Shown piece by piece: positions 32,504-57,969 of a stretch of DNA of 64,000 nucleotides; position 1 is the stretch's first letter, and every line of letters starts with the position of its first letter. Position numbers and translations under genes: made by a program. A model generated the notes under the pieces. The model was not told the DNA's origin. It worked only from the letters and a program-made list of their open reading frames with translations, and made no database searches. This DNA comes from a virus (lineage: Duplodnaviria; Caudoviricetes): IMG/VR virus record IMGVR_UViG_3300021431_004525; one strand, written 5' to 3'.

Positions 32504-32755
32504 AGAGCCGTTTTATATATTCAGATGATAAACTATACGTTTTAGAAATTTTAACGTCTTAGAAACGATTTTTTCTGTTTATAGTGCAAAGTTAGGAAAA
32601 ATAAACGATAATACCAAAATATTTTAGTTAAAGTAAGTTAAATTCAAGAAAAAGGTGGTACTTAATGGTACCGTCCAACTCTTATCTTCTAATAGTTTAA
32701 GGGTCAAAGAGATAAATTATTAGAATGCCGTAAAAGTCTGCGAAACCGGCCAAGC

Positions 32756-32872
32756 CTACACGCGAAGGAACGCCCGGACATAGTAGTTGTAGTTCTTACG
32801 GTTGGCATCCACACTACCACCGTTCGTATACACGCGGTATGCGTGGCTACTATCATACTCAGAACTCGACCA
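32756..32872 (-). repeat. putative DGR variable region VR1
   Basis: Versus VR2: 23 differences at codon positions 1-2 and only 2 at position 3 over 23 codons. Confidence 0.8.
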
Positions 32873-33772
32873 AAGCCAGCGATACAACAGAGTAGCACCC
32901 TTCAACATTATAAGCGAAAGATTAATCTGTGTAGTATTTTCAAACATCTTCTCCAATTCACCTATCGCCCCTACATACCAATCTCCGGACTTCGTTCCTT
33001 TGGTTTTATATTTAGAAATCCACTTGAACATTGGGTAATTTGTAGGTTTATATTCCTTCGATTTAAGAACATTTTCAGTTAATTCCTTGCCGTTTAAGGA
33101 TTTTTCATAAGTTTCATAAGAAACTGCATTGTTAATAAGAGGACGCATACTATGTTCAAGTGTACACCACTTTTTTTCGACTTCATCTCTTGAAACGACA
33201 ACCGGTTTTCCATCCTCATTGAAAAATCCGACAACACCGATTATATTACCATCTTTTTCCGGAGTATAGTCTGACCGATGAATACACGTCTTGTTTCCAT
33301 TATCATCGGTCATACAAAAATCACCAATGGACACCTTATCTCCTTCAATATTCTGTGGGTATGCGTCAGCAATTGTTTCCATAATAATATCAATGGATTT
33401 TGCCTTAACCGGCTCTTTAATCACCTTATCGGTGATAAACATTTTTCTTGCACAAATCTGGCTTAATTCATCATTGACAAAAAATTCTGTTCCGGAAGGA
33501 ATAACTGCTTCAAATACAATATCTTTATTGCTTAAGCCTCCATGTTCATCCTCTGCATACAGCAAAGCATGGATAAATCCACCTCTTACTGAATTACGTC
33601 TGTTATTATTATATTCAATGCTTAAATCGTCAGCAACCATTTCCTTATTTAATTCTACATTAGTACGCTGATACGGAGTTGAATAAGTTCCATTTGGATT
33701 CTTCGTTAATACTTTATAGCAAATAATATCCTCTTTTGTTATAAGTTTTTTAATTCCGGTTGATAGACACAT
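32756..33772 (-). CDS. putative DGR target protein 1 (C-terminal C-type-lectin-like/DUF1566-like fold)
   Basis: WY.G.IGEL...WSSSEY....AY.V...G.........VRAF; paralog of 56956..57969. Confidence 0.8.
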   Translation of the reverse strand: MCLSTGIKKLITKEDIICYKVLTKNPNGTYSTPYQRTNVELNKEMVADDLSIEYNNNRRNSVRGGFIHALLYAEDEHGGLSNKDIVFEAVIPSGTEFFVNDELSQICARKMFITDKVIKEPVKAKSIDIIMETIADAYPQNIEGDKVSIGDFCMTDDNGNKTCIHRSDYTPEKDGNIIGVVGFFNEDGKPVVVSRDEVEKKWCTLEHSMRPLINNAVSYETYEKSLNGKELTENVLKSKEYKPTNYPMFKWISKYKTKGTKSGDWYVGAIGELEKMFENTTQINLSLIMLKGATLLYRWLWSSSEYDSSHAYRVYTNGGSVDANRKNYNYYVRAFLRV

Positions 33773-33801
33773 ATTTTTTTGTTATTTTAATGTTTTTACA
33801 T

Positions 33802-33836
33802 TGCAAAAGTACAAAATAAATTTGAAATAACCAAAT
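33802..33836 (-). promoter_or_regulatory. promoter of DGR target 1
   Basis: TTTGG...TACTTTTGCA. Confidence 0.7.
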
Positions 33837-34360
33837 ATTTTTTAATTAAGTAATATTAAATGGTTTTACTTTTTACTATTGTAAGACCGCCTTGTTTTTC
33901 TTTCGTTTCAAACTTAGCAAGTTCGGCAAAATAATTTTCCTTCTGTTCTATATTAAAAGCGTTATCCCTATCTTTTTCAGTGGCAAATAGTCTAACTTTT
34001 GGTATCTCATACCATTCTATTGCATCATCATACCACCCATCACGTTTTTTAGTGATGATTGCATATCCATATATCATAGTGCTTAATTATTGATATTAAT
34101 TATTTTCCACTTTAGTCCAGACAAACATTGTATCAGAGCCATCACCATAATTTGCCCCATCAGCACAGAAGAAAAACTCATTAGGCTGCGTAAGGTCTAC
34201 CTTATGGAAATGGTAAGCACAAGCACCGATAGTGTCCTCTTTGGTGAAAAACTCTACTGCCCGGTCATAAGACATCTTACCAATCTCCTCAAGGTCGTAA
34301 TAGTAAGACGGATTTACGCTTGCTGAAAAAATGGTTACTTTCATATTAATTAATTTTTAA

Positions 34361-34708
34361 TTATTTCTTAAAATCAAATCTCCAATAAGGAAAACCATTT
34401 GAAGTATTCTCATAACGTAAAATACGTACAAGAGTTAAGTTCTCATTATCAAGCATTATACGTAAGAATTTCTCAACATCTTCCGGATGGCGGTCTGAAT
34501 AGAACGCTTGGCCTTGATTGCCCCATATCTTCTGACACGTCTCATTATACTTCTTGCTATCCCATCCATAAAGCCGGTCAGAATATACAGATTCGCTTGC
34601 CTTTTCATTATTACCAAAGCCATATTGAATAATACCGCCATCATATCTGGCGAAATCATAACCAATCATAACGCCATTGCCATCGAAATAAATTACTTCT
34701 TCAATCAT
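34361..34708 (-). CDS. hypothetical protein
   Basis: VYSDRL...N.SNGFPYW.F; after the promoter at 34731. Confidence 0.7.
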   Translation of the reverse strand: MIEEVIYFDGNGVMIGYDFARYDGGIIQYGFGNNEKASESVYSDRLYGWDSKKYNETCQKIWGNQGQAFYSDRHPEDVEKFLRIMLDNENLTLVRILRYENTSNGFPYWRFDFKK

Positions 34709-34804
34709 ATATTACTTTTTAATTTGACACTGCAAAGGTATAAAGAAAAAACGGAATATCCAAACATTTTTAGTTAATAAATCTGAACATTCCGTTAATT
34801 GTTG

Positions 34805-35308
34805 TTAATCATCGTCATCCATTACCTTCATCTTCTTCTTTTTCCTACTCTCTTTATAGATTTTCTTCTGTTCTTTCTTCACCTCTTTCCAATATTGTTC
34901 CTCTTTCTTAGTACCTACATAATCAGTGGTATAGGTGGTTGTTACCTCACCATTCTCATTATAAGATGTGGTATAGGTGGTATGATAGACCGGTTTCCTT
35001 GTATCGGCATGGGTATTAAGGTAACTCTTTACAAGATACACTTCATCACTACGTCCGCCACCGGATGAATTTTTGAAACCGGTATCAGTGTTCTGTTCGG
35101 TCCGTCTTGATTGGTCGTTAAGATAGACACTATTCTCCCTCATAAAGTTACGATAGTGTGAAGGACGATAGACACTCTTATCTGAATAGGTACGAGAGAA
35201 ATCCGGCTTATAGCCATAAGGTCTGTTAGGAACATAATAGGTCGTTCCGCAACTTGTAAGCAAAAGCACACTTACCAAACAAATCAAAAACAAAACACTC
35301 TTTTTCAT
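34805..35308 (-). CDS. putative lipoprotein
   Basis: MKKSVLFLICLVSVLLLTSC lipobox; start placed downstream of the promoter at 35379. Confidence 0.65.
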   Translation of the reverse strand: MKKSVLFLICLVSVLLLTSCGTTYYVPNRPYGYKPDFSRTYSDKSVYRPSHYRNFMRENSVYLNDQSRRTEQNTDTGFKNSSGGGRSDEVYLVKSYLNTHADTRKPVYHTTYTTSYNENGEVTTTYTTDYVGTKKEEQYWKEVKKEQKKIYKESRKKKKMKVMDDDD

Positions 35309-35452
35309 ATTATTTAATTTTACAATAATCTTCCAACTTATTACTCTTATTATTATATATACTTCTTTAATTTGACGATGCAAAGTTAGCGAAAAAAACG
35401 CAGACCACCAAACAATTTTAGTTAATCTGCGCTAAAGAACTGTTAATGTGTG

Positions 35453-36211
35453 TTAATCACTTTCAAACTTCTCAATAAGTTGCCTTAGAATAGGTAATAC
35501 CTTATCACGATACTTTTCTTTCTGTCCGGATAATATCATATCAATATTCTGTATATCCGCATCTTTGAGGGAACTGAACGAATCAGATAGGCTGGTTAAA
35601 ATCTCAATCCCACTATTAACATCGGCAATAAGTTGTGTGGAAACAAGTGAATTAATTTGAGAAACAGCCTCCTCTGCATTACTGAAACTTAAACTAATCC
35701 AAGAATTTTGAATATCCCTTACAATACGTCCGGAAGTAGAATATTTATTCTTTTCTCCATCTGTACGATAATCCATCTCAAAAGAAATGCACACCATTTC
35801 ATCACCCATTGAATTATTAAGACGATAGGTTGAATAATTACTATTCCAATTCATCTTCATTCCTATCACATTGGTAAGATACCAGTGGATTTTTCTTTCC
35901 TCATTATAATAAGGCAGTGTCATTGGGTCATAACATATTGATGGAAATGCAAGTGTTTTATTATACTCCGTTACATCTGTAATAAGTTGGTCTGCATCTG
36001 TATAAGTCTTATCATTGAAGATAACGCTTTTCTTCATTGTCGGCTTTGCCGTCACAGAGAAGAAATAATCAAGGCCGCCACCTTCAGGGGAAATATATAC
36101 ATCATATAAGTTTGCGACCTTTTCCTCGGCAAAATCATTACGCTTGCACACATAATAGTCGGTATTGAGTGTGCGTAGTAACGTATTAGATGATTTAAAT
36201 AACTTGTTCAT
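35453..36211 (-). CDS. hypothetical protein
   Basis: 252 aa ORF. Confidence 0.7.
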   Translation of the reverse strand: MNKLFKSSNTLLRTLNTDYYVCKRNDFAEEKVANLYDVYISPEGGGLDYFFSVTAKPTMKKSVIFNDKTYTDADQLITDVTEYNKTLAFPSICYDPMTLPYYNEERKIHWYLTNVIGMKMNWNSNYSTYRLNNSMGDEMVCISFEMDYRTDGEKNKYSTSGRIVRDIQNSWISLSFSNAEEAVSQINSLVSTQLIADVNSGIEILTSLSDSFSSLKDADIQNIDMILSGQKEKYRDKVLPILRQLIEKFESD

Positions 36212-36216
36212 ATTAA

Positions 36217-36933
36217 TTAATCTTTAAGTGCTTCCGGATTTGTGAGTTTATCATCAATCCTATCAAACATAGTTCTGTATTCCTCGTCTTGTTTCATCCA
36301 AACCTTAATACCATTCATAATAACCTTCAAGATATGTTTATCTGTACCGAACTTGCCGACACCAGCAAGATATGTACGCATATCCTCGTCATTAAGCAAA
36401 TCCCATGGGCCACAAGTAGGATAGTTCATACAGAACTTATCTTCACCATTTCTGCATTCGTAGTCAATTGAGAAATAGTAAGGACGCTTGACAAGTGGCT
36501 TACCATCTTCATCGTAACCCTTAACATAACAGATACGCATCCACCTACCCATGTGTCCGACTTCCCATCCCTTACCTAAGTAATCCTCGATAATGCCGGA
36601 AATGTAATTCCTTGTACTTGTCTCAATCCCCTTAACCTTATCAATAAGGCTTGTACGTTTCGCCAATAGGTCTGCCTTATACTTCTCGCCCTCCGGTGTC
36701 TTGAAATATTCCTCCCTTTTCAGTTCTTTCTTTGCAGAAGCGATGGCATTCTTCACACAAGTAATGTCATGCTCCAATACAGGAGTCTTTGACTTCCGTA
36801 CATTGTAGTCAAACACACTGCCATTCAGATACTCGTCAGTCAGTTCAACAACCTTATCGGTCTCACCTTTAAGAGTATAATACTCATTCTTTAACTCGAT
36901 GTACTTCTTGTAAAGTTCTGCTTTCTTTGTCAT
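36217..36933 (-). CDS. hypothetical protein
   Basis: 238 aa; after the promoter at 36964. Confidence 0.7.
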   Translation of the reverse strand: MTKKAELYKKYIELKNEYYTLKGETDKVVELTDEYLNGSVFDYNVRKSKTPVLEHDITCVKNAIASAKKELKREEYFKTPEGEKYKADLLAKRTSLIDKVKGIETSTRNYISGIIEDYLGKGWEVGHMGRWMRICYVKGYDEDGKPLVKRPYYFSIDYECRNGEDKFCMNYPTCGPWDLLNDEDMRTYLAGVGKFGTDKHILKVIMNGIKVWMKQDEEYRTMFDRIDDKLTNPEALKD

Positions 36934-37055
36934 AACTCAATCTGTTTTATTTGTTTAACGTGGTGCAAAGGTACAAAGGATATTTCAATCTACCAAACAA
37001 TTTTACTTAATAAATGTGAAACAAGTGTTAAAAGATTAAAAACGCATAAATCTCG

Positions 37056-37448
37056 TTAAACGTCATATTTCTCAATTTCTTTTTTCTGTTTCTTAATAAG
37101 TTCCTTGCAACTATCAATCTTCATCAAGGCAATACCGATTTCGGCTTGATTATCCTTAATTTTATCCAGAAGAATATTATATATTTTCCTCTTTGCATCA
37201 ATTTCAGTCGTGAACACATTATAATGCGTCTTTTGTGCATCACGGGACACATAATCAATCTTGAATTCACCCTCTTCCTCCGGAGAATTGGGTACTTTCT
37301 CTGCAATTGTAATTGTCACAGAATTATCAGATGGATATTCCACCTTACTGGCATGCCCTTCAAAAATTGATGGTATATCGCCATATTCAATGATATACAG
37401 AACATCACCCACTTTAACATCACCAAATGTCTTATACTCTCTTTCCAT
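37056..37448 (-). CDS. hypothetical protein
   Basis: KTFGDVKVGD start. Confidence 0.65.
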   Translation of the reverse strand: MEREYKTFGDVKVGDVLYIIEYGDIPSIFEGHASKVEYPSDNSVTITIAEKVPNSPEEEGEFKIDYVSRDAQKTHYNVFTTEIDAKRKIYNILLDKIKDNQAEIGIALMKIDSCKELIKKQKKEIEKYDV

Positions 37449-37644
37449 AAACTATCTTTGTCTGAAGTTAAATAAACAATGTAAAGTAAAATTATAACTA
37501 TCTTCTTCAAGCATAGAAGTTAATTCCTCTGTAATATCCTTTTCCGGAATAAATTGAAGAATATAACTTTTTAATTCTTCAGCGATTTCTTTTGGACGTA
37601 ACCTTAAATCCTTTGCTACGATGCGTTTGTACTCTCTTTCCATA

Positions 37645-37923
37645 TTACTCCCAAGTTACTTTCTTTTCCAAATATCCTTTACCTTTGCATCGTGGACAAG
37701 TATGATGTTCATAATATCCACCCATTGGACCATCCCAATGTTCATAAGGTTCTATCCATTTGCCCCTCCAACCACCTTCTCCGCCACATTCTGGACATAC
37801 AATACGTGTACCATCTAAGATTTTCTCATGGTGCTTACAATCTTCCAAAGATGTAAATTCTTGTCCATCCTTTGCTACATATACTTTGTAGTCAACGGTT
37901 TTCTGTCTTGTTACTTCTTTCAT
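37645..37923 (-). CDS. DnaJ-type zinc-finger protein
   Basis: CPECGGEG and CPRCKGKG. Confidence 0.7.
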   Translation of the reverse strand: MKEVTRQKTVDYKVYVAKDGQEFTSLEDCKHHEKILDGTRIVCPECGGEGGWRGKWIEPYEHWDGPMGGYYEHHTCPRCKGKGYLEKKVTWE

Positions 37924-38240
37924 ATTTATTTTTTAATTCTTCTATTTCATCATGCAATGCTTCAATGTTATCATTATTGAAAGCAACTCTGTTACTGATT
38001 ATAAATGTTCCGATATATAGAACTCCAACAGATACAGCAACAGCCCAATCACCCCATTTATACGCAAAATTACCAAACATTATACCGAGCAGAAAGATAA
38101 ACATTTTATCCCACGTAAAAACCTTTGGCTTAAATTCTTGATACTTCTTCATATTCTTATATTTTATTTCTGACTGCAAAGGTAATAAAAAAAGTCGAGA
38201 ATACCAAATGTTTTCCCGACTTTAACATTAGTTTAACAGT

Positions 38241-38738
38241 TTAAGGACGATATTTCTTGAATATATCACTGATTAACTTTTCATGACCAAATGCCCACCG
38301 ATAACCCTTGATGTCTTGTACCTTGATGAACTTAATCATTCCAACCTCTTTGCCCTCATTACCGGCATGGGAGAATTTGAAATCCTCTGCTTTCTTATCC
38401 TTGATAAATGCACAGAAACGGAAGGTAACATTCTGTCTGTTTTCCTTTGGACTATCATTGTAGCCGACAAACTGCAAATCACTCTCTTTAAGTGATACAC
38501 CGGTTTCCTCCTTTAATTCTTTACAAGCATTTTCTGCTGCGGTGACATTGAACTCAAGGTAGCCACAAGGACAATTCCAGTAACCCTGATAGTCTGCCGC
38601 TTCCTCTCCACGTTCAGACCCTAAAACACACCAATCGTTTTCTTTGTCTTTAGCAAAAACAAATACTGCCGTTGCCATAGACCTACTAAACCACCCAAGA
38701 AATTTCCCATTCTTGTCATAACATTCTTGATTCTGCAT
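38241..38738 (-). CDS. NUDIX hydrolase
   Basis: WNCPCGYLE..........KELKEETG Nudix box; WAFGH. Confidence 0.88.
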   Translation of the reverse strand: MQNQECYDKNGKFLGWFSRSMATAVFVFAKDKENDWCVLGSERGEEAADYQGYWNCPCGYLEFNVTAAENACKELKEETGVSLKESDLQFVGYNDSPKENRQNVTFRFCAFIKDKKAEDFKFSHAGNEGKEVGMIKFIKVQDIKGYRWAFGHEKLISDIFKKYRP

Positions 38739-40056
38739 ATTCTAATTCTAAAATTTTATGTTTTAATTCATCTAAATTTTTGTATATTTTTTCACCAAAT
38801 AAAGTCTCTGGTGCAATAAATCTATCATCTTCTGCATAATAGAAAAGTTTTTTAATGTTTTCTTTGCATAAATTGTATTTTCGTAAATCTCTTTCTCGAT
38901 TTGTTTTTAATCCTTTTTCGCCACCATAAACATCAAGTGCTTTAAAGTGTTGTATTCCTTGACATTCAATAGCAACATCTAAATCCTTGATATAATAATC
39001 AAGATGTTGTAAACCTAACCATTTAGCATGATACCCATTTTTATATTTAATACCACATTCATCAAGTAATTTGCCAATTTTCAGTTCCAATTTGGATTTT
39101 CTACAATTAGGACAACTTTCACCGGCAAGATGTTTATTTGGTGACATCCAAAACTCGCCATGCTCCGGACAAATGATACAAACTTTATTTATGGCTTTTG
39201 TATAAACGACTTTTGAGTAATCATATTTGTCACCATGAATTTGTCTAAATTCTTTTATTACACTTTCGGTTGTTTTATATTTTCCTGCACAAGATGGGCA
39301 ACCTTTACCTCTTAAATGATTATTCGGTGTAACACAAAACTCGCCATGCTCCGGACAAATGATACAAACTTTCTTGTTTGATTTTTCATAAATCACCTTG
39401 GAATAGTCATACTTATTACCCCATATCTGTTTTGCCTTCTCAATAAACTCTTCAGTGTTGGACGTTAGTGCTGCGTGTTGACATCCTTTGCATCCTTGTC
39501 CTCGTACATGATTACTAGGGGTTTGCCAAAACTCACCGTGTTCCGGACAAATAATTCGCATTTTAGTAACCATATTAGTAAACGTATTTTCGTCATACTG
39601 ATATTTGTCACCATGAACTTTTCTTGCCCTTTCTATAAATTCAGTATATTGTATTTGATAACGTTCCTTATCATTCTTTTCTTTATTATTTTTTAGAAAA
39701 TTGCAAGGCTTTATGCTAAATTCGCCATATTTAGGACAGATTATAATAACCGGAATTTTCTCATTTATATACTCTACTTTGGAATAATCATACCTATCCC
39801 CATGTAAATTTTTAGCCTTACGAATAAACTCTTGTTTTAATTTTTCTCTCTGTTTCTCTTTGGTACATTCCGGACATTCTTGTCCTCCAAGTAAATGTGT
39901 CGCGGAAACTTCCCATATTAAATTATGTTTCTTACAGATTATTTTGACTTTTTCTTTCGGACTTTTGTATTCGACTAATGAATAATCATATCTATCTCCG
40001 TACTTTTCTTTTAATTTGTTAATAAATCTTTCTTGTAAATCCATTATTTTATTCAT
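38716..40056 (-). CDS. free-standing homing endonuclease (DUF723-like Zn repeats + C-terminal PD-(D/E)XK-like domain)
   Basis: Repeated YDYSKVxY...IICPEHGEF..TP..HL.G..CP.C; HLDYY...AIECQGIQH. Confidence 0.82.
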   Translation of the reverse strand: MNKIMDLQERFINKLKEKYGDRYDYSLVEYKSPKEKVKIICKKHNLIWEVSATHLLGGQECPECTKEKQREKLKQEFIRKAKNLHGDRYDYSKVEYINEKIPVIIICPKYGEFSIKPCNFLKNNKEKNDKERYQIQYTEFIERARKVHGDKYQYDENTFTNMVTKMRIICPEHGEFWQTPSNHVRGQGCKGCQHAALTSNTEEFIEKAKQIWGNKYDYSKVIYEKSNKKVCIICPEHGEFCVTPNNHLRGKGCPSCAGKYKTTESVIKEFRQIHGDKYDYSKVVYTKAINKVCIICPEHGEFWMSPNKHLAGESCPNCRKSKLELKIGKLLDECGIKYKNGYHAKWLGLQHLDYYIKDLDVAIECQGIQHFKALDVYGGEKGLKTNRERDLRKYNLCKENIKKLFYYAEDDRFIAPETLFGEKIYKNLDELKHKILELEYAESRML

Positions 40057-40136
40057 TTATATAAATAAATATAATGAACTCTCGCAAAAAAGCAACTTTT
40101 ATTGTTTAATAAAAATCTTTAATTATTTTTTTTTAA

Positions 40137-40185
40137 TCATCCGAGGAATTTTTCCGGACTTATCATAACACTCTTGATTTTTCAC
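40137..40185 (-). pseudogene. relic original 5' end of the NUDIX gene
   Basis: Reads (V)KNQECYDKSGK(+1 A)FLG* versus live MQNQECYDKNGKFLGW. Confidence 0.8.
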
Positions 40186-40254
40186 TGCAAAGATACGAAA
40201 AATATTTCAAATAACCAAACAAATTACATTCTTTAACACAACTTTAACTTCTGT

Positions 40255-41496
40255 TTATGCTGCATAACGAACAAATAATTCATCAAGCCATCCATTATGT
40301 CTTGCCACATCGTATGCACCATTACTATATTTTCTAAATTCGTTTCTCGTCTTATATTTCTTTGCTTCGGCAAAAACGTTCTCCTTTGTCCAGAATCCTC
40401 TTGGTTTTTGTACTTCTTTAAACCAATCCATTTCGTTCAACCAACCATTTACTCTTGCAACTTGGTATGCTTTATTGTATGATGTTTTAAACTCACTTTT
40501 TGTTTTGAACTTCTTGGCAGCTTCAAATACATTCTGCTTGATATTCCAATATCCGTATGGCTTTAGTAATGATGTGAACCAACTCATTTCCTCAAGCCAA
40601 CCATTTCGTCTTGCAATATCGTATGCTGTATGACAACCATCAGAAAATTTTTTTCTTGTCTGATACTTCTTTGCTTCCGCAAACACTTTCTCTTTTGACC
40701 AGTATTCATTTGGCCTTTGTGATGATATAAGCCAAACCATTTCATCAATCCAATTATTTTTACAAGCAAAAGTGTATGCGCTGCTACAACCTTTTTTAAA
40801 TTCTCTTTTTGTTTTATATTTCTTTGCTTCTGAGAAAACCATCTCTTTTGTCCAGAAAAAATTTGGCTTCCTCCCTTCTTCAAACCAATTCATTTCTTTC
40901 AACAGACCTTTTCGTCTTGCCGCAACGTATGCACTACCACAACCACTCTGAAATTCATACTTCGTTTTATATTTCTTTGCTTCCGCAAATATAGTTTTTT
41001 TGTTCCATTTTCCACTATTAATTGCGCCCAATGAGCCACTACCAATACCGGTTTTTGCAATATTTAAAACATTATATCCTTTATTTTTATAATAGTTCTT
41101 CCAATAATCTTCTCTATCCAATCCTTCCTCGATTGTTAGATTATCCTCAATAATCTCCATTGCCGGAACTTCAAAACCATTTGCATCTGCATATTTGTAT
41201 ACTGTATCTTCTTCTTTTGTTCTGTGTCGACAAATGGTATCAACCTTATGTATTGTTCTACCAATGTAAATTGAGTTTGTTTCTTTGAAATAATATTTGT
41301 AAACACAATCAATTTTATTAGTTAATAGTTTTACTCTACCATCTTCAAACCAATTCATTTCATTAATCCATCCTTCTCGATAAGCAATCGCGTGCGCACT
41401 TGGACACCCTGTTTGAAAATCTGATTTTGTCTCATATTTTTTTGCTTCTGCAAACACATTATCCTTTGTCCAGAATCCTCTTGGTTTTCTTTCCAT
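40255..41496 (-). CDS. GIY-YIG homing endonuclease with C-terminal helical repeats
   Basis: CVYKY.....IYIGRT; repeats WxKExVFAEAKKYxT..EF....AY..A..NGWL. Confidence 0.8.
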   Translation of the reverse strand: MERKPRGFWTKDNVFAEAKKYETKSDFQTGCPSAHAIAYREGWINEMNWFEDGRVKLLTNKIDCVYKYYFKETNSIYIGRTIHKVDTICRHRTKEEDTVYKYADANGFEVPAMEIIEDNLTIEEGLDREDYWKNYYKNKGYNVLNIAKTGIGSGSLGAINSGKWNKKTIFAEAKKYKTKYEFQSGCGSAYVAARRKGLLKEMNWFEEGRKPNFFWTKEMVFSEAKKYKTKREFKKGCSSAYTFACKNNWIDEMVWLISSQRPNEYWSKEKVFAEAKKYQTRKKFSDGCHTAYDIARRNGWLEEMSWFTSLLKPYGYWNIKQNVFEAAKKFKTKSEFKTSYNKAYQVARVNGWLNEMDWFKEVQKPRGFWTKENVFAEAKKYKTRNEFRKYSNGAYDVARHNGWLDELFVRYAA

Positions 41497-41617
41497 AATT
41501 CTTAATTTATTTTATTTGTTAATAATGTTATTTCTTAATTTCGATACAAAGGTACAAAAAAAAGTTGAGAAAACCAAACATTTTCCCAACTTTAACACTT
41601 TTTTAACACTTTATTTT

Positions 41618-41944: not shown

Positions 41945-41945
41945 A

Positions 41946-44093: not shown

Positions 44094-44104
44094 AAAAAAG
44101 TTGT

Positions 44105-46233: not shown

Positions 46234-46238
46234 ATCAT

Positions 46239-48940: not shown

Positions 48941-49299
48941 AACTCTTACTTGTTTAATTTTGGTGGTGCAAAGTTACAAATAATTTCTGAAACTACCAAA
49001 CGTTTTACCGACTTTAACACTTTTTTAGCACTTTACGCTGCAATAGCCTTGATGATAACAAGTTCATCGAACAAAGTAAGATTTACCTCGATATCGTCAT
49101 AATGTTTCCAACTATTTGGTTTATCTGTGAAACTATCTATATCCACAATGGTGTTCCACACATACTTGCATTTAAGCATGGCCGCACAAATATCATGGGT
49201 AGATAATGTTGTCGTAAGGAACAAAGTATGCGTTTTCTTGTTCCGCTTATTCCTTTTGAAACCGGTAACACTATAATGATGTAACATAACGACAAACTT

Positions 49300-49647
49300 T
49301 TATTTATTATTTCTGTTCTTAATACGTTCTAAAAGTGCATCAGCATACACAAATCTAATATAAGAAGGACAACTACCATCACTCTTACAGAAATACCCAT
49401 CTTTGAAAAGATGCGGATAAACGTCCAGCACTCTTTTAATTGCCTTATTAAAGTAGGAACTATTATTAGTGTCAACTTGCACTTCTACATCATAAGGGCA
49501 TACCATTATAGGATATACCTCTGTCGAACTACCAGAAATCCATGTATAATCAATGATATGCTTTTGTATGACATTATTAGACAAGCAAGCCTCATATATA
49601 TCCCTTGCTATTTTGTCTTTTATTTCGGACAAATCTATTTTATACAT
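49300..49647 (-). CDS. hypothetical protein
   Basis: ORF track. Confidence 0.65.
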   Translation of the reverse strand: MYKIDLSEIKDKIARDIYEACLSNNVIQKHIIDYTWISGSSTEVYPIMVCPYDVEVQVDTNNSSYFNKAIKRVLDVYPHLFKDGYFCKSDGSCPSYIRFVYADALLERIKNRNNK

Positions 49648-49652
49648 AACTT

Positions 49653-50180
49653 TTACAATATTGAATTAGTAATTACAAAGTCACCGATAAGCAGTCTTGC
49701 AGTATCATCCCAAATGGCGCGCTCATTAGGATAATAGTCACGAAGCCAATCAATAATGTCACCATACATAGTTTGGCCGGAATTGAGAATAGTTGTTCTT
49801 TTCTTTCCGTAAATCTTTGTACGTCCTTTATTCAGAAGGGATAATTCACCTTTGACCTTTTCAAACAACTCCTTTGCAGTCATAGAACCTTTGAGTTTTC
49901 TTGTACGTTCTACCTCAATGGTTTTCTGATAGTCGTAGATAATATTGATATCATACTTGACCTCAATCTCTTTTCTGGGCGTTCCTGTAGGCTCTGTAAT
50001 CTCGACCTCATGCGAGAATACGGCAAAACCCCAAATATCACACACTTTTTCATTGCTCATATCCTCTTTGTAGCAATCGCCCAAAGATGCAAATTCACGG
50101 ATTCCCTTCATACATTCCTCAATAGATGTAAGGTTGTGAAGAACGTCCAACTTTTTAAAATCAAAAACTGAATATAACAT
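49653..50180 (-). CDS. hypothetical protein
   Basis: Start placed downstream of the promoter at 50222. Confidence 0.65.
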   Translation of the reverse strand: MLYSVFDFKKLDVLHNLTSIEECMKGIREFASLGDCYKEDMSNEKVCDIWGFAVFSHEVEITEPTGTPRKEIEVKYDINIIYDYQKTIEVERTRKLKGSMTAKELFEKVKGELSLLNKGRTKIYGKKRTTILNSGQTMYGDIIDWLRDYYPNERAIWDDTARLLIGDFVITNSIL

Positions 50181-50642
50181 AACTCTAAAATTTAATTGTT
50201 TAACTTGTTTCTTAAATCTGATGCAAAGATACAATAAAAAAACGAATTATCCAAACTATTTTACTTAATAATTGTGAATAATTCGTTAAAAAATGTTAAT
50301 CAGATAATTTTCTTCATCAAAAGCAACCGGTGCATACGTCTGTAGGCCGTCAATCTGTCTATACATTTCACCTCAAATAAGAATATAGTTTCGTCTTTGA
50401 TGAAACGTATATATTTTACATACACCATCTTTTCTACCGAAGGTAAATTTATTTCACCCTCTGCCAAATACCACTGATATCCATCGTAATGTATAACTCT
50501 GGGAATACAACGCTCCGGATAGAAGATGTATAGAACGGCTCTGAAAATCTTTTTCTTAATCTTAGTTAATAATTTCATATTATCTTATTTTTATATTTAA
50601 CACATTTGTGTGAATAATTGCTGCCAATCAGTAGATTTATTT

Positions 50643-51326
50643 TTAGTAGAGTTTATAATCAAATGGATTACGTCCGGCTTCACCCCACTTCTTGATGGTG
50701 TTCACACATTCCTCTAACTTACCCATAGTCTTGGCAATCTTAACCGGAGACTGAGAGAAAAGTTGGTGCTTAAAGCCTAATTCTCTTGGTGTCTTACCAC
50801 CGAGCATACGACCCTCATAGACCGGCTGACCCTTGAACAGACGGATAGTAATTTCACGATTCTTGCTAACCTTATTGATAAGGTTGTTAAGGGCAATCTT
50901 CATATCGTCCAACTTCCAAGACAGCTGGATGGCGAAATCGTAAATCTCGTTCTCCTTCTTCTTGCCACATTCGTGCATAACGTTGATGATACGCTCGACC
51001 TCACGATACTTCGACTGATAAGCGGAATACTCCTTGCTATAAGGCTTCATAATCTGCTCTGAAACAATGCCGTAGGAGCGATATGCGTGACCATAGAACA
51101 CCGATAAGGACTTGAAGGGTGCAGCACTCTTAATCAGTTTCTCAACCTCCTCTGCAAGGATTGAAATGTCCTTATGATTACCAACGGTAGACTCTTCGCC
51201 GGTTCTGCGAACACGCTTCTTAGCAACTTTCTTTGGCTTCAGCGACTTCTTATAGTCAGCCATAGTCATTTTAACACCGTTAACTGTGATGTACTGCGTC
51301 TTGTCGAAATCAGATATTCCTGCCAT
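50643..51326 (-). CDS. basic hypothetical protein
   Basis: 227 aa; after the promoter at 51369. Confidence 0.75.
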   Translation of the reverse strand: MAGISDFDKTQYITVNGVKMTMADYKKSLKPKKVAKKRVRRTGEESTVGNHKDISILAEEVEKLIKSAAPFKSLSVFYGHAYRSYGIVSEQIMKPYSKEYSAYQSKYREVERIINVMHECGKKKENEIYDFAIQLSWKLDDMKIALNNLINKVSKNREITIRLFKGQPVYEGRMLGGKTPRELGFKHQLFSQSPVKIAKTMGKLEECVNTIKKWGEAGRNPFDYKLY

Positions 51327-51917
51327 AATTGTAATTTTTAAATGTTTATACTTTGTTTATTTTGATAGTGCAAAGGTACGGCAAAAATTTGAATCTACCA
51401 AACTTTTTCTGTTAATAAAGGCAAAGAATCTGTTAAAAAATGTTTAGCCTTCTAAAAGTTGTGATTTATAATCATTCAATTCCTTCTTAATGTTATCTAT
51501 TTCCTCTTTAAGTGTCTGGATTTGCTTGTCTTGTTCCTCATTTCTTACACGCTCAATAGATATAAGACAAAGAACAATAAAAAACAATCCGGCAGTAAAG
51601 CCACCTATATAGTCAACAGCCATATAGCAACCCAACCCATACAATAAGAATATAAATAAATTCTTTAAACTATATTCCTTAAACATAACTCAATATTAAT
51701 TAGTTTTTAATACTCCCATCCGCATAAAGGTTTCCGGCCAATCTTTCCACCTTGTTCATCATCTGATATTTTCTTTCCTTTTAAACGGATATACTTATTG
51801 ACTTGTTTTTTAAGCCAACGTCTGGAATGTGAAAGATGCCTCCACGGATTATCCATGTTTCCATCTTTCTTCCACCAATATTCAAGATGTTCAATCTGTT
51901 CTCTTGTTAATGCCATA

Positions 51918-52340
51918 TTAATAAGGACAATTAATACTATCTAAATAGTTTAACATTTTCTCTGATGTATTGCACGCATATTCATTTCGTTCATCAAACC
52001 AACCGGTTTTAGCGTTTTCTGCCAATATCTTGATATAAGCCATACACAATTTGAACATGTTAGACTGCAAAGTCCGGTGGTCACTTGCCATACGTTCTGC
52101 GGCCTTACGCTCATTGTGACTGCAATTATTCACATAGTCCGAAAAGAAACGTGCAAATACATCATCATTGGTTTCACCACTGCGAGGACAAAGTGTAGAC
52201 TTGAAACGCTCATAGACCTTTTTCATAAGGAACTCACGACCCATATCTGTGACATCGTGGTCTCCTTCAAGCAGTTCAACAATCTGGCCGTTGTTCAACT
52301 CATAGTCCTCATACTCTCTACCATTCAATTCAAACTTCAT
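51918..52340 (-). CDS. hypothetical protein
   Basis: HRTLQS...FDERN motif. Confidence 0.7.
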   Translation of the reverse strand: MKFELNGREYEDYELNNGQIVELLEGDHDVTDMGREFLMKKVYERFKSTLCPRSGETNDDVFARFFSDYVNNCSHNERKAAERMASDHRTLQSNMFKLCMAYIKILAENAKTGWFDERNEYACNTSEKMLNYLDSINCPY

Positions 52341-52352
52341 ATTTAATACTTT

Positions 52353-52790
52353 TTAAATTGTTTTATGCCAAACCGGAAGATAACCATTATCCAAGTGTTC
52401 CTCACCGGAAATTAAATTGACAAATTCCTCAAAATCTTTCTTTGATTCAGTTTTCCAAAAATAACCAAGAGGTGCATCATATTCATCAAGCCATAATGAC
52501 CAATGACCAATACAACCATTATCCATTAATTTAATTCTATCCTGACAGATTTCATTACCGTCATCGACCATTTCATGTCCGGAATAGATATAGTCAATCA
52601 TTTCCTTTGCGGAAGAAAAATGGTACTTTTCAAGATGCTCAAGGTGTTCTACCTCTTTTTTAATTTTTTCGGCATACTCCTTAATTTTCTTCTTATAGAG
52701 TGCTTCTTCTGACATTTGAGATTCCACACCCATTTCGTCCATCATGTTCTGCCAATTATTTTTGGACTTTTCTGACATTTTAAACTCCAT
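52353..52790 (-). CDS. hypothetical protein
   Basis: After the promoter at 52815. Confidence 0.65.
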   Translation of the reverse strand: MEFKMSEKSKNNWQNMMDEMGVESQMSEEALYKKKIKEYAEKIKKEVEHLEHLEKYHFSSAKEMIDYIYSGHEMVDDGNEICQDRIKLMDNGCIGHWSLWLDEYDAPLGYFWKTESKKDFEEFVNLISGEEHLDNGYLPVWHKTI

Positions 52791-52879
52791 AGTAGATTTC
52801 CTTTTGAATTATAGTGCAAAGATAATAAAAAAAGTTGAGACTACCAAGGATAATTTCAACTTTAACATTATTTTAACGC

Positions 52880-53188
52880 TTATTCTTTAATAAATCCATT
52901 TTTCACACACCAGTCATATAGACCTTGCAATGCTTCGTTTGGTGTTTTACCATAGGCAAACGCATTATTATATGGCGGTTCTGTTGCATCCGGATTAAGG
53001 CATACAAAATTTCCCTCTGTACCATAGGAGGCTAACCAATCTTTTCCATCATTATGAAGATATAGCCACCCAATATCACCACCTTCCTTATTGTCTGTCT
53101 TATAAGCGACTACATTACCATCTTTATCCAGTACCTTATTACGACCAATATGGGATGGTAACTTTAAAAGTAATTCATCTGTCGACAT
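52880..53188 (-). CDS. hypothetical protein
   Basis: ORF track. Confidence 0.65.
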   Translation of the reverse strand: MSTDELLLKLPSHIGRNKVLDKDGNVVAYKTDNKEGGDIGWLYLHNDGKDWLASYGTEGNFVCLNPDATEPPYNNAFAYGKTPNEALQGLYDWCVKNGFIKE

Positions 53189-53196
53189 GTCAAATA

Positions 53197-53700
53197 TTAT
53201 CTAATTTTTACTATCTTAACTTTTGTTTTCTTGAAATTTTTCTCACCGGCATGTTGCAATATATCTATGTAATGATTAAACCTCTTATTCATGGTGTCTC
53301 GCACTTCATAATACCCATGTCCTTCTATATGTACCACACTCCCTAAAGGAATGTATTTAAGCAAATCCCTGCTCACGGCACAATACTTAATCTCACCCTT
53401 TTTGAGTTTATTCAAATCTATTTTTGTTCCATCGGCAGTTACAAGTGGGTCATTATCACATTGTGATTCCACCGGATTATATGTTGTAAGTGTAACATGT
53501 GTAGTGAAACGTCCGGAATTATTGACTTTTTTCAGACTATCAGTCTTGACTTGAATACTATCTGTTACCGGTTTATCATTGATAGGTTTTCCGGTCTGCT
53601 CTTGCGTCTGATACAGAGAAAGCATAAACATAAACATAAGCATGTAAATGAAAACCACATTTGTGAGAGCGAATAGTATATACACAAAGAAATTCTTCAT
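53197..53700 (-). CDS. membrane-anchored 3D-domain protein (lytic-transglycosylase-like)
   Basis: N-terminal TM; TTYNP..QCD.DP..TADG, AVSRDL, PLGS.V, V.DTM, IDIL. Confidence 0.8.
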   Translation of the reverse strand: MKNFFVYILFALTNVVFIYMLMFMFMLSLYQTQEQTGKPINDKPVTDSIQVKTDSLKKVNNSGRFTTHVTLTTYNPVESQCDNDPLVTADGTKIDLNKLKKGEIKYCAVSRDLLKYIPLGSVVHIEGHGYYEVRDTMNKRFNHYIDILQHAGEKNFKKTKVKIVKIR

Positions 53701-53759
53701 ATTAATTAATTTTTAGTGTAACAAACAATAACGTAACGTATTTCTCTCCTTACCACAAC

Positions 53760-54200
53760 TTACTCACTCCAAGTTTTATTTGAAACAATATCAGCCTTAT
53801 TCTTATAATCCTCAATGGCAACATAATCATTCTTGAAAGTAGTTCCATCATACTCCGGAGAATATGCGAAAACAATCTCCTGATATACTTTCTCTTTATG
53901 CTTGTTTTCCTCATGCCAGAAACGATGTGCCGTAATATCAAACAAGAATGTTGAGATAATTACCGGTTCACACTTGACCACATATTTAGTGTTGATGGTC
54001 TTGTTTCGACCTTTGTAATCTTCAAGAGACACAAGTTGATGGCTTCCTTCCGGTACTGCTTCCGCAAAAAATTCATTCCAATTAGAGCCACCCATGCCAC
54101 CACCACAAGACATCTTGACACGATAGCCGACCTTTTCAGAACTATTGACGAACTTTGAAGGTGCGCAAGGCAAACCAATCTCAATCAAATTCCTTTTCAT
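53760..54200 (-). CDS. hypothetical protein
   Basis: After the promoter at 54245. Confidence 0.65.
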   Translation of the reverse strand: MKRNLIEIGLPCAPSKFVNSSEKVGYRVKMSCGGGMGGSNWNEFFAEAVPEGSHQLVSLEDYKGRNKTINTKYVVKCEPVIISTFLFDITAHRFWHEENKHKEKVYQEIVFAYSPEYDGTTFKNDYVAIEDYKNKADIVSNKTWSE

Positions 54201-54349
54201 ATTAATTGATTTTTTAAGTGTTTATATTTTATTTATTTTGATGGTACAAAGGTACAAATAATTTCTAAATTACCCAAATATTTTCACCACTTTAACACAA
54301 ATTTAACACTACGCGGCAGAATGATTGATACCAAGTGTCTGTAATTCAT

Positions 54350-55772
54350 ATAATTCTTTCAAGGAAACTCCATCCTTTAGGGTGGAGAGGAATTGAAAGT
54401 GGTCTTTTATTATTAAACTTATTTATTTTTTCATTTGCAAATTTACAATGTTTTCGGCAGAAAACAAAATATTTTTTGCAAAAAATATTTAATTATTGAT
54501 ATTTTTTATATTTATTAACATATTTATATATAAATTACGTTCACGACGTGAACAATACATAAATAAAATGATACTGACGTATAACATACAACTGCAACCG
54601 GATAAAACCACATATGACTACTGGGTTTCACTCCTTACAGATACTGCAAAAGCATACGACCTTTGCAGCGGCCTGCTTGCAGATAACAATACACCACTTA
54701 CCATCAAGTCAGTACATAATACATGCTATAACGTGGTACGTGAACAATTCCCCAACCTACCGGCACAATCCGTAATACGTGTACAAAAAGAAGCAATGTC
54801 CGCACTAAGAAGCAGAAAAGGCAACAAGCATAACGGAGATAAGCCAACAAAACATAACTTATCTCTCACACTCGATAAACGCATGTATTCAAGGCTTACA
54901 CCGGAAAACATTGCAATATGCGGAGGCATAAAGGGAAAACGCACCACCGTACCATTCGTCACCTACGACAAGGAAAAACAGATGTTTTCCATGTATAAGC
55001 CGTGTGACCCATTATTATTCCTACGTAGCAATACCCTATGGCTTTCTGTACCATTTAATGTACCGGATACCGTAGTATGCAATGACAACTCCATCGGTGT
55101 GGACTTGGGTATGAAACGTCTATTCGTCACATCTGAAGGTAATGCCTTCGTGGATAAGGAATACCTTCGTAATCGTAGAAAACTGCGTTACCTTAAACGC
55201 TGTTTGCAGAGTAAAGGTACTAAATCCGCAAAGAGACATTTGAAAAAAGTATCACGTAGGGAACGTAATATGTCAAGAGATATGCAGAACCGTGCGGTTC
55301 TTGCATTGATTGAATCCACCGATGCCGGTGTGATTGTAATGGAGGATTTAAGCAAGATTAAGAAAAACACGTCAAAGAGCAATGACGGATTTAAACGTAA
55401 GCGTCACAACAACGCAATTGCGCAAGTGCCGTTTGCGGAGTTCAAGACACGACTGACCAACAAGGCACACCTTTTCGGCAAGGAGGTGAAAACAGTTTCT
55501 CCGGTTTACACCAGTCAAACAGATTGCAGGAATGACAAGCGTAATGGCAAGCGTAATGGTTGCCGTTACTACTGCAAGGATGGTTTGGTATTGGATGCAG
55601 ACTGGAACGCAGCAGTCAACATAGCCAAGAAAGGCAAACACCCGTTTTCGAATATTCTTCCAGTCGACGGAAGGCTTAGGTTCTTAAACGGCAGGGTTTC
55701 GTCAATAACCCAATTGTCTGCATCCCTTAATGGGAACGGACAAGCCCCTCACTTTAGGGAGGGGTAATTGAC
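54350..55772 (+). mobile_element. IS200/IS605-family element lacking tnpA (IS1341-like)
   Basis: Left-end hairpin CTCCATCC-TTTA-GGGTGGAG from 54367; right-end hairpin CCCCTCACTTTAGGGAGGGG + TAATTGAC; left boundary inferred. Confidence 0.82.
54568..55767 (+). CDS. tnpB: RNA-guided endonuclease TnpB
   Basis: RuvC I IGVDLG, RuvC II VMEDL, YTSQ, RuvC III LDADWNAAVNI; all three acidic residues present. Confidence 0.93.
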   Translation: MILTYNIQLQPDKTTYDYWVSLLTDTAKAYDLCSGLLADNNTPLTIKSVHNTCYNVVREQFPNLPAQSVIRVQKEAMSALRSRKGNKHNGDKPTKHNLSLTLDKRMYSRLTPENIAICGGIKGKRTTVPFVTYDKEKQMFSMYKPCDPLLFLRSNTLWLSVPFNVPDTVVCNDNSIGVDLGMKRLFVTSEGNAFVDKEYLRNRRKLRYLKRCLQSKGTKSAKRHLKKVSRRERNMSRDMQNRAVLALIESTDAGVIVMEDLSKIKKNTSKSNDGFKRKRHNNAIAQVPFAEFKTRLTNKAHLFGKEVKTVSPVYTSQTDCRNDKRNGKRNGCRYYCKDGLVLDADWNAAVNIAKKGKHPFSNILPVDGRLRFLNGRVSSITQLSASLNGNGQAPHFREG

Positions 55773-55792
55773 ATATTAAACATTGAATAATA
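55615..55792 (+). ncRNA. TnpB omegaRNA overlapping the tnpB 3' end + guide (ATATTAAACATTGAAT...)
   Basis: Hairpins such as CCGTTT/AAACGG and TCCC-TTAAT-GGGA; conserved in the orphan copy. Confidence 0.7.
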
Positions 55793-55865
55793 AAAAAGTA
55801 TGCTATATCATACATAATTTCAAACAACTGGGAAATTACATATAACATAGCATAGGCCTATATAC

Positions 55866-55881
55866 GTACTCATTCGAGTAC
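55866..55881. repeat. 16-bp palindromic motif, copy 4 (intergenic)
   Basis: GTACTCATTCGAGTAC. Confidence 0.9.
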
Positions 55882-55882
55882 A

Positions 55883-56125
55883 TTAGTAATCATCGACATC
55901 TAATTCTTCCATGCCATGTAACCAGTCATTATATCTTTCCGCTATCGGCATAGTGACATATAATTCATCGGTTGTACCGCCATATTGTTGCCAACTCTCA
56001 TAACAACGTTCAATGTAGATAACAGAACCGGTATTTAACTTTACCTTAATTTTTCTCCGTTTAGGCTGATTCACATACAGAAACTCAACCTTAGTTACTT
56101 TAATTTCATCATCTTTTCTTGCCAT
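55883..56125 (-). CDS. hypothetical protein
   Basis: CYESWQQYGG motif. Confidence 0.65.
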   Translation of the reverse strand: MARKDDEIKVTKVEFLYVNQPKRRKIKVKLNTGSVIYIERCYESWQQYGGTTDELYVTMPIAERYNDWLHGMEELDVDDY

Positions 56126-56411
56126 ACTACGCTACTTCTTTAAGTTCATATCCATAGCCACGGAGCAGAATTTCCGGATTATCCTCACCTGAAATCCATT
56201 GACCGCAAAAATCAAGGCAGGCTTCATCCTTGGCTTCCAAATCTGTCCAGACTATTCCCTTGTCCTCGCACTGCTTATCAAACATGTCTGAAAGCATTGC
56301 CAACTCTCCGTATGATGGTTGTCTTTCCATGATTTATGTTTTTAAATAAATTAATCTTCAATCTACTTGTTTACCGGTTCCTTATTATTCATTTTTTGTC
56401 AGTCCAATTTA

Positions 56412-56807
56412 TTAAATCATATCACAGATGGCAACACGCTTTCCGGCACGTATTAACTTAGGGAGATAAGTATCAAGGGCATGGTATGGAAAACCGGTCA
56501 AATTATGCCATATACCCTTATAGTTACAAAGACTAATCCCCAGAATATTAGCAATATCTACTGCATCATTTTCGTAACTCTCATAGAAATCACCACAACG
56601 GAACAGAAGAATAGCATCCGGATACTTTGCCTTCAGTTCATGGTAAGTTACCACTTTCTCTTGAGCCTTGATACTCTCTATTTTCTTTTCGATAGACTGC
56701 TGACGTTGAAAAAGTGCTTCAGAAACAGCCTTTGCGTTCTGATAGGTCTTGTTCACGAAAGAAAGTTCATTCTCTAACTGCTTGATAAGTTCCTTATTAC
56801 TTTCCAT
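56412..56807 (-). CDS. stand-alone MutS domain I (mismatch-recognition) protein with N-terminal coiled coil
   Basis: [22 protein letters not shown]...[25 protein letters not shown]. Confidence 0.88.
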
Positions 56808-56955
56808 AACTTTTGATTTTATTTGTTGTTCTGTTTTAATTACGATGCAAAGGTAATACATTTTTTCCAAATAACCAAGGAAATTACGCTAAATTATGTT
56901 AACAATATGTTAAAAAATATAAGGTGGTTTCAAAAGTCTGCAAAACAGACCGACC

Positions 56956-57072
56956 CTACACACGAAGGAATGCCCGGACATAGTGGAGGCTGCTCTTATT
57001 GTTGATACCCATGTAACTGCCGTACATATCCACGAGGTATGCGTCGACACAATCATACTCAGAACTCGACCA
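56956..57072 (-). repeat. putative DGR variable region VR2
   Basis: NNC/NNT codon variation relative to VR1. Confidence 0.8.
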
Positions 57073-57969
57073 ATATAATGAATCAAGCAACGTAGCACCA
57101 TTCAATAAAAACAATGAAAAATTAATAAGAATAGCGTTCTTTGACATTTTTTCCAACTCGCCAGCAGCACCTATATACCAATCTCCGGACTTCGTACCTT
57201 TGGTCTTATATTCACTAATACATTTGAATATAGGATATTTCTCTGGTTTGTAAACCTTTGATTTAAGGGCATTTTCAGTTAATTCCTTGCCATTTAAAGA
57301 TTTTTCATAAGTTTCATAAGAAACTGCATTGTTAATAATAGGACATTTGGACAATCCAAGAGTACACCAACGCTGCATACTACTTTCACGGGAAATAACT
57401 ACCGGATTACTATTCTCGTCATAGAAGCCAACTACACCAATAATATCCTTATCTATCTCTGCGGTATATTCATCACGATGAATATATTTCTTACTGCCAT
57501 CTGGCTGAACGACGCAAAAATCGCCAATAGATACTTTACCCTCCTCTATCGTCTGCCTATAATCATCCTGTAACATATCTATAATACAACCGATACTTTC
57601 ACGTCCATACGCTTTATCCACTACCCTGTCAGTAATGAAAATTTTACGGGCACAGATTTCAGAAAAATCATCAGATACATAAAACTCAGTACCAGCCGGA
57701 ATAGTTGATGTGAAAACCCTACAGCCTTCGCTAAAACCGCCAGTCGCATTTTTTACTATTAAGAGTGCATGAATAAATCCATCACCTATGTAGTTACGTC
57801 CATCCTTACAATATGTACGTTTATCTTTGGCCTTAAGAGTTTTATTCAGTTTAACAGATGTGCCTTGATATGGAGTTACATAACCACAATTATCACAAGA
57901 CCGAAGCACTTTGTAACAAGTGATGTCGTTTTTAGCGACCATCAATTTAATGTTTGTTGTTAGACACAT
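56956..57969 (-). CDS. putative DGR target protein 2 (C-terminal lectin-like fold)
   Basis: YWSSSEY....AY.V....G.........VRAFLRV; paralog of 32756..33772. Confidence 0.8.
   Translation of the reverse strand: MCLTTNIKLMVAKNDITCYKVLRSCDNCGYVTPYQGTSVKLNKTLKAKDKRTYCKDGRNYIGDGFIHALLIVKNATGGFSEGCRVFTSTIPAGTEFYVSDDFSEICARKIFITDRVVDKAYGRESIGCIIDMLQDDYRQTIEEGKVSIGDFCVVQPDGSKKYIHRDEYTAEIDKDIIGVVGFYDENSNPVVISRESSMQRWCTLGLSKCPIINNAVSYETYEKSLNGKELTENALKSKVYKPEKYPIFKCISEYKTKGTKSGDWYIGAAGELEKMSKNAILINFSLFLLNGATLLDSLYWSSSEYDCVDAYLVDMYGSYMGINNKSSLHYVRAFLRV

Follow-up and report, generated by a model that had tools for sequence, protein, structure and literature searches.

What has written the hypervariable ends of two paralogous genes in a stretch of phage DNA that holds no reverse transcriptase (RT)? 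The question is posed by 64,000 nucleotides of IMG/VR record IMGVR_UViG_3300021431_004525 (Duplodnaviria; Caudoviricetes), hereafter the window, in which two small genes end in variable regions (VRs) that resemble those of diversity-generating retroelements (DGRs). Phage DGRs are understood mainly as a means of changing tail-fibre tropism. Judged from the sequence, the variation in both tips very probably originated from a DGR, given their codon pattern, a nucleotide scaffold common to related VRs, a sibling cassette in which every mismatch falls on a template adenine, and the concentration of differences between the window copies in adenine columns. To the fuller statement, that a DGR cassette elsewhere in the phage's genome still rewrites both tips on rare occasions, we assign a probability of about 0.5.

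Codon pattern and fold of the variable ends

A preliminary description of the window, made from its sequence alone, had singled out two paralogous open reading frames (ORFs) with similar C-termini, and both were present as stated (Table 1), their products P0001 (copy 1) and P0002 (copy 2) being 57% identical over their full length in a protein alignment. The exact P0001 protein was found on four metagenome contigs, the longest of 391,794 bp. The final 117 bp of the two copies aligned without gaps, as described, and a codon-by-codon count over codons 308-330 returned the same 13 first-, 10 second- and 2 third-position differences as reported before, whereas the remainder of the gene carried 99, 71 and 171 differences at first, second and third positions over 311 codons. 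Third positions differed in 2 of 26 VR codons against 171 of 311 elsewhere (55%; p=1.6e-6), and when only amino-acid-changing codons were counted the third base differed in 1 of 17 within the VR against 84 of 128 outside it (p=2e-6). Solely inside the template-homologous block were third positions nearly identical between the copies. The flank words TGGTCGAGTTCTGAGTATGAT and TATGTCCGGGCNTTCCTTCGNGTGTAG each occurred exactly twice in the window, with none expected by chance, in keeping with the constant flanks claimed earlier. The conservation proposed for the bases after the stop codon held as well, 19 of 25 being common to both copies, up to GCAGACTTTT, and the GC-rich end GTCCGGGC..., the stop and ~24 nt beyond it were conserved both between the copies and in relatives. 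A GTCTG-5nt-CAGAC hairpin placed after the stop in the same description fared worse: it occurred in copy 2 only, with no conserved counterpart in copy 1 or five relatives, and its folding stability equalled that of shuffled sequence (z about 0).

Because silent sites are near-identical and coding sites scrambled throughout the last 38 codons and the ~24 nt that follow, neither drift nor gene conversion alone suffices to explain the pattern. Codons of the form NNY ended in C in 57% of cases in the VR compared to 27% in the ORFs of the window (p=6.5e-5), which fits a templated AAC origin and not the phage's own codon usage.

The same arrangement recurred in the wider family, whose members were found on metagenome contigs of 374-401 kb. 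In 25 family clusters the C-terminus read WSSSE(Y/C), followed by hypervariable residues on a fixed A..V....G.V....K.....VRAF scaffold. At the nucleotide level, seven VRs on four related contigs (the two window copies, that of L002, two of the 384-kb STEW19 contig and the two C-terminal VRs of L025) shared one scaffold in which third bases were fixed and first and second bases scrambled, with A the commonest base at the scrambled positions. The choice between C and T at third positions was kept across genomes even in codons with differing amino acids. Between copy 2 and its orthologue in L032, 58% of first and second VR positions differed against 10-13% elsewhere, with third-position differences in the VR no greater than elsewhere, and between copy 2 and its orthologue in L002 differences affected 8 of the 26 residues in the VR and 19 of the 311 outside it. 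The STEW19 pair was identical over nt 193-700, yet 31 of 96 nt differed in the VR. The tail of P0001, YVRAFLRV, was that of its genome-mate, whereas its closest orthologues ended in RVRAFA(A/V/T)F. In L025 (positions 10001-13937 of a 41-kb contig, Joint Genome Institute (JGI) 3300037400), tandem genes of 637 and 651 aa each represented an internal duplication of a ~310-aa module and carried two VR blocks on the window-type scaffold, four VRs in total; the number of VRs per genome ranged from two to six. That VRs are almost wholly different among strains whose gene bodies are 85-90% identical points to rewriting during the diversification of this lineage.

A second fast-evolving patch was seen in the N-terminal part of the proteins, at aa 23-62 (L032/L033, gene nt 1-192), where the pattern was not DGR-like; the STEW19 copies differed at 26 positions within nt 1-192, 17 of which were first or second codon positions.

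An AlphaFold model made from 25 family members (pLDDT 90.7), together with structural comparison, placed the VR at the end of a C-type-lectin-fold domain. By VIA-align, residues 141-338 matched the Bacteroides ovatus fimbrial protein 4eps (Z 18.4, 190 residues aligned) and the C-terminal domain of Legionella Lcl (8q4e, Z 12.2), with weaker matches to the DGR variable protein TvpA (2y3c, Z 6.7) and to classical C-type lectins; a Pfam match to Lcl_C/DUF1566 (E=1.4e-4) lay under the curated cut-off. On this model the C-terminal ~200 residues are a predicted DUF1566/Lcl_C C-type-lectin domain, the CLec2 class of DGR targets, which is category 'd' of Wu et al. 2018 (PMC5758913). The earlier proposal of a DGR-type VR on a C-type-lectin fold thus draws support from both the codon-position pattern and the 4eps match.

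Table 1. Coordinates in the window of the two copies, their parts and the gene downstream of copy 2
Feature	Position	Strand	Basis
Copy 1 gene, P0001, 338 aa: N-terminal beta domain, helical linker, lectin-fold C-terminal domain with VR	32756..33772	(-)	ORF
Copy 1 N-terminal domain, aa 1-125	33398..33772	(-)	Family alignment
Copy 1 DUF1566/Lcl_C C-type-lectin-like domain, aa 141-338	32759..33352	(-)	Structural and Pfam comparison
Copy 1 template-homologous block: final 117 nt (W301 to stop) and ~24 nt post-stop	32732..32872	(-)	Silent-site identity
Copy 1 hypervariable core, codons 308-330	32783..32851	(-)	Differences by codon position
Copy 1 TAnnTTTG box, 31 nt upstream of ATG	33804..33811	(-)	Motif scan
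Copy 2 gene, P0002, 337 aa	56956..57969	(-)	ORF, alignment with copy 1
Copy 2 template-homologous block	56932..57072	(-)	Alignment with copy 1
Copy 2 hypervariable core	56983..57051	(-)	Differences by codon position
Copy 2 TAnnTTTG box, 35 nt upstream of ATG	58005..58012	(-)	Motif scan
Small MutS-domain-I protein, directly downstream of copy 2	56412..56870	(-)	Pfam MutS_I E=5e-22

Sibling cassettes and template adenines

A profile of the VR ends, searched against 1.8 billion representative proteins, retrieved numerous short ORFs that are rich in Asn and have the form WSSSEY..NNA.NVNTNNGNVNNNNKNNNNYVRAF, containing ...YWSSSEYSSNNARNVNTNNGNVNNNNKNNNNYVRAF... within them. One such ORF, P0054, sits between a 134-aa avd-like gene and the gene of a 400-aa RVT_1 protein, which shares 39% identity with the DGR RT of phage Bacuni_F1. 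In IMGVR_UViG_3300045988_163575 (L066-L068), a 282-kb jumbo phage, a 319-aa target, a 134-aa avd-like gene, a 57-aa template repeat (TR) ORF and an RT lie within ~2 kb. The VR and TR of this phage have the 38-codon layout of the window VRs and end in YVRAFLRV-stop; all 16 mismatches between them fall at TR adenines, and their identity extends ~30 nt past the stop. By its sequence, this cassette is a complete, apparently working DGR of the window-VR design in a jumbo phage.

The preliminary description had proposed a check that mismatches fall on the adenines of the TR. We ran it with the TR of the 282-kb phage as a proxy for the cognate template, A occupying 35% of its 117 columns: among the 27 columns at which the window VRs differ, 20 coincided with adenines of the sibling TR (Fisher p 3.8e-6), and the other 7 did not. 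For the C-terminal VR pair of L025 the count was 26 of 28 (p 2e-13), a pattern that suggests recent writing of these tandem VRs, and for the STEW19 pair it was 18 of 31 (p 0.004).

Under the mechanism that we propose, the cassette would consist of an avd-like gene, an AAC/AAT-rich TR and a DGR-clade RT, and would presumably lie outside the window, elsewhere in the phage's own ~0.4-Mb genome. The template would be transcribed and then reverse-transcribed with errors at adenines, and the resulting cDNA would replace the VR, taken to comprise the last 38 codons and ~24 nt past the stop, scrambling codon positions 1 and 2 while keeping the third base. A single cassette may serve both copies in trans, only rarely, and may continue to do so. 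The targets would be two-part proteins, expressed from host-type promoters in the early/accessory region, in which a ~120-aa N-terminal beta domain, possibly NAD-using, is joined to the DUF1566/Lcl_C lectin domain.

The missing cassette and rival explanations

The preliminary description had stated that no RT or template repeat lies near the two genes. This was the case: the 64-kb window held no third VR copy, AAY-rich stretch, RT or Avd, and no RT was found within 10 kb of family members in eight gene contexts. The template search that it had called for came back negative in the sequence covered. No cognate TR, RT or Avd was present in 349,697 bases of the window and related loci, which partly overlap, and no cognate TR or RT was found in IMG/VR, JGI metagenome contigs, GTDB genome contigs or GenBank phages, collections from which the phage group itself is missing. 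Degenerate VR/TR patterns gave no match in IMG/VR, nor did an exact scan for flank 21-mers, and the 21-mer matches in metagenome contigs (n=2) and in genome contigs (n=16; a Nostoc gene and a Phocaeicola TonB-receptor gene) were set aside as chance. Against GenBank phages, neither blastn of the copy 1 VR nor megablast of 6 kb of the window returned a match, and in 401 Bacteroidaceae and 401 further Bacteroidales genomes (802 in all) the copy 1 VR found chance matches only, of ~30 nt, inside ordinary genes. Among protein relatives there were no shorter ones, as TR-encoded ORFs would be, at E<=0.01, and the longer ones were L025-type proteins only. The clusters of TR ORFs included none on a ~390-kb contig; the TR-bearing contigs were mostly of 1-3 kb, the longest measuring 211 kb, 123 kb and 72 kb.

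Several results weigh against a cassette that resides in this phage and remains active. Among them are the empty searches of the window, of the related loci and of the eight family contexts. The Jug-like L025 contig lacks the avd-TR-RT cassette found after the homologous target in the 282-kb phage, and no RT was met along the 39 kb walked of its 41 kb. The TRs of L057-L059 and of the 282-kb phage were considered as the cognate template and rejected, since 18-24 non-adenine mismatches to the window VRs indicate that neither served as such. At nine of these positions all seven Jug-type VRs carry a fixed base, which suggests that they share a separate template of Jug type. The report on Jug (jumbo gut) phages makes no mention of a DGR, an RT or hypervariable genes (PMC12363816; absence from its supplementary table, available in part, is given no weight). 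Finally, P0002, P0003 and P0004, from three near-identical assemblies, have an identical VR despite N-terminal differences, which together with the seven non-adenine columns of the window pair indicates that rewriting is rare at best.

Much of this evidence would suit VRs that are orphaned or borrowed, that is, products of a DGR that belonged to an ancestor or to a related phage, such as one with a cassette like that of the 282-kb phage, acquired or kept by descent or recombination; no cassette would exist now, and the frozen VRs would change by ordinary mutation and recombination only. We regard this as a serious contender that falls short of an even chance. No TR or RT appeared in any sequence searched, the cassette is absent downstream of the homologous tandem targets in L025, and the identical VRs of P0002, P0003 and P0004 are what frozen tips would look like. 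The share of non-adenine differences is also higher in the window pair (7/27) and the STEW19 pair (13/31) than in L025 (2/28) or the active sibling (0/16). A Lcl_C-type protein can moreover occur in a megaphage that has no RVT_1: in the Prevotella phage Lak-A1 (MK250016.1 398834-404085, L049) a 299-aa protein has a Lcl_C-like end, YWSSRE..., and the whole 541,643-bp record gave no match to RVT_1. Against orphaned VRs, the sequence searched is a fraction of a ~0.4-Mb genome, and DGR regions often break assemblies, as the small size of most TR-bearing contigs illustrates. Nor would frozen VRs be expected to differ almost completely between strains with closely similar gene bodies, or the tail of P0001 to match that of its genome-mate and not those of its orthologues.

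A process with no retroelement at all, in which diversifying selection acts on a lectin-fold surface loop and gene conversion between paralogs keeps flanks and silent sites alike, is already disfavoured, and we consider it improbable. Gene conversion does occur in the family, as the identical central part of the STEW19 copies shows, and the patch at aa 23-62 also evolves fast with many non-synonymous changes. Within 69 nt, however, gene conversion would not spare third positions and yet allow 23 changes at first and second ones. The conserved C/T choice at the third position of amino-acid-changing codons, the VR codon usage unlike that of the phage and the coincidence of variable columns with the adenines of a homologous working TR all argue against this process. 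Least probable of all is cassette switching, in which the tips would recombine with silent VR cassettes that lack a promoter and are stored at other sites of the genome, whether or not a DGR was ancestrally involved. The four VR blocks in the two tandem L025 genes could be cited in its favour, but no VR-like copies beyond the full-length genes were found in the window or related loci.

Genomic setting, possible function and known systems

Both genes are carried among small genes in the early/accessory region of a ~0.4-Mb gut Bacteroidales phage. The window encodes two DNA methyltransferases, GmrSD_N, RlaP, a radical-SAM protein, NUDIX, GIY-YIG, TnpB and a MutS-domain-I protein, and over its 64 kb it holds no structural genes. 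Structural neighbours were likewise lacking in the eight gene contexts of family members. Two points of the preliminary description were borne out: neither protein has a signal peptide, and each gene has its own host-type promoter, a Bacteroidetes-type TAnnTTTG box preceding each ATG by 31-35 nt. Such boxes numbered 71 on the coding strand of the window compared to 38 +/- 6 in shuffles.

The MutS-domain-I protein (131-152 aa) adjoins copy-2-type genes in the window, L002, L003 and L004, whereas in L032 it is encoded 4.4 kb upstream of the target. Its gene has no avd, TR or RT as a neighbour. Genes for small MutS-like (MSL) proteins are known as accessories of DGRs (Wu et al. 2018, PMC5758913), and the MutS-domain-I protein is possibly an MSL-like accessory of this kind. 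A TnpB/IS605 OrfB gene (Cas12f1-like TNB, OrfB_IS605) occupies positions 54496-55767 (+) of the window; its presence in the window and in the JGI contig L004 but not at the same site in L003 indicates a polymorphic insertion, and by coordinate offset the end of the 391,794-bp ENA contig appears to fall inside it. Elsewhere in the family, the contig of L024, on which a distant member, P0027, stands beside methyltransferase, TROVE and Eco57I genes, has ~3 kb without a called gene (11197-14152). The 41-kb contig of L025 also holds the neighbourhood L054/L056, where many genes are of counter-defence or NAD/SAM type (Tad2-like, Macro domain, NAPRTase, SAM synthetase, SAM lyase, protein kinase, Thg1, CinA and VWA).

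The N-terminal domain is a separate beta domain that starts with an invariant MCLxT, its invariant residues being M1, C2, L3, T5, D15, K20, T32, G65, H68, A69, P92, G94, F97 and A108. It also occurs alone, as a ~150-aa protein, in IMG/VR phages of ~98 kb (L026-L031, contigs of 76-100 kb); in L027 the stand-alone ORF continues into a downstream membrane-protein gene to give a 289-aa product. Of the structure searches proposed for both domains, that of the C-terminal domain succeeded and that of the N-terminal domain gave faint matches: its best 50 VIA-align rows were nearly all ADP-ribosyltransferase (ART)-fold proteins, namely Tpt1/KptA, Arr, TreX, Tne2, scabin, diphtheria toxin, pertussis toxin, PARPs and DarT, all with Z<=4.9. 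It had no Pfam match, no PDB match by sequence or profile and no significant Foldseek match; its Atlas neighbours were hypothetical phage proteins only, and no ART catalytic motif (H-Y-E, R-S-E or R-H-R-R) was assigned among its invariant residues. The modelled domain thus weakly resembles ADP-ribosyltransferase folds, which we treat as a lead only.

The proteins most likely serve as binding modules of variable specificity within the infected cell. From their genomic context and the weak N-terminal fold matches, an intracellular effector with an adaptable head is plausible. A more specific version, a retargetable enzyme whose ART-like, NAD-using domain is directed early in infection, through the DGR-diversified lectin head, to a changing set of host proteins in the cell (those of defence, for instance), is a long shot; if true, a very common human-gut jumbo phage would use targeted hypermutation for counter-defence and not for receptor binding. 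A DGR signature here marks small, promoter-equipped, non-structural proteins among the anti-restriction and anti-defence genes of a ~0.4-Mb gut phage. Should the cassette be found and the proteins act in the cell, DGR biology would extend to adaptable intracellular effectors, and what hypervariable phage proteins bind could be tested directly. Should the phage have no cassette, the two genes would plainly exemplify DGR products that persist and spread as orphans.

Contig sizes of family members, their origin in gut metagenomes and their Bacteroidetes-type promoter boxes agree with the Jug phages, described as phages of 360-402 kb from Bacteroides/Phocaeicola (PMC12363816). The affiliation draws on size and habitat, and makes the window phage a probable member of a clade that is reportedly very abundant in humans.

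Among GenBank phages the best match to the window proteins was a DUF1566 protein, gp47 of Bacteroides phage Bacuni_F1, whose gene immediately precedes an annotated avd, TR and RT and which has the VR layout of the window copies (WSSTEY...VRPVSAFL). Like this protein and the Legionella target LdtA, the window proteins have a C-terminal VR on a DUF1566/Lcl_C fold that runs from WSS(S/T)EY to VR..F, with NNC/NNT codons, scrambled first and second bases and homology that continues past the stop codon. Unlike them, the window genes lie in an early region and have no signal peptide and an unrelated N-terminal domain, whereas targets of the gp47/LdtA type adjoin their RT and are surface or virion proteins (fimbrial-tip-like, lipoprotein). 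The targets of phage DGRs are expected within ~50 kb of the RT (Wu et al. 2018, PMC5758913); for copy 1 the distance to any RT is at least 30 kb. The DGR of the 282-kb phage shares with the window the 38-codon VR/TR design, the YVRAFLRV-stop end and a jumbo-phage carrier, but mismatches between its TR and the window VRs include 18-20 at non-adenine positions, and its single 319-aa target is an L025-type module in cis and not a member of the family with the MCL... N-terminal domain.

Quimbyvirus, a Bacteroides phage of ~75 kb, has a DGR with a second, non-structural C-type-lectin target that lies among methyltransferases and defence/counter-defence genes (Benler et al. 2021, PMC8008677). Its RT, TR and structural target are known, whereas the window phage is of ~0.4 Mb, both of its visible targets are non-structural and no cassette was found in the sequence searched. 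The window, with two DNA methyltransferases, GmrSD_N, NUDIX and a MutS-I gene, resembles the Quimbyvirus island, and the second, non-structural DGR target in that defence-related island is the closest published parallel to the genes described here.

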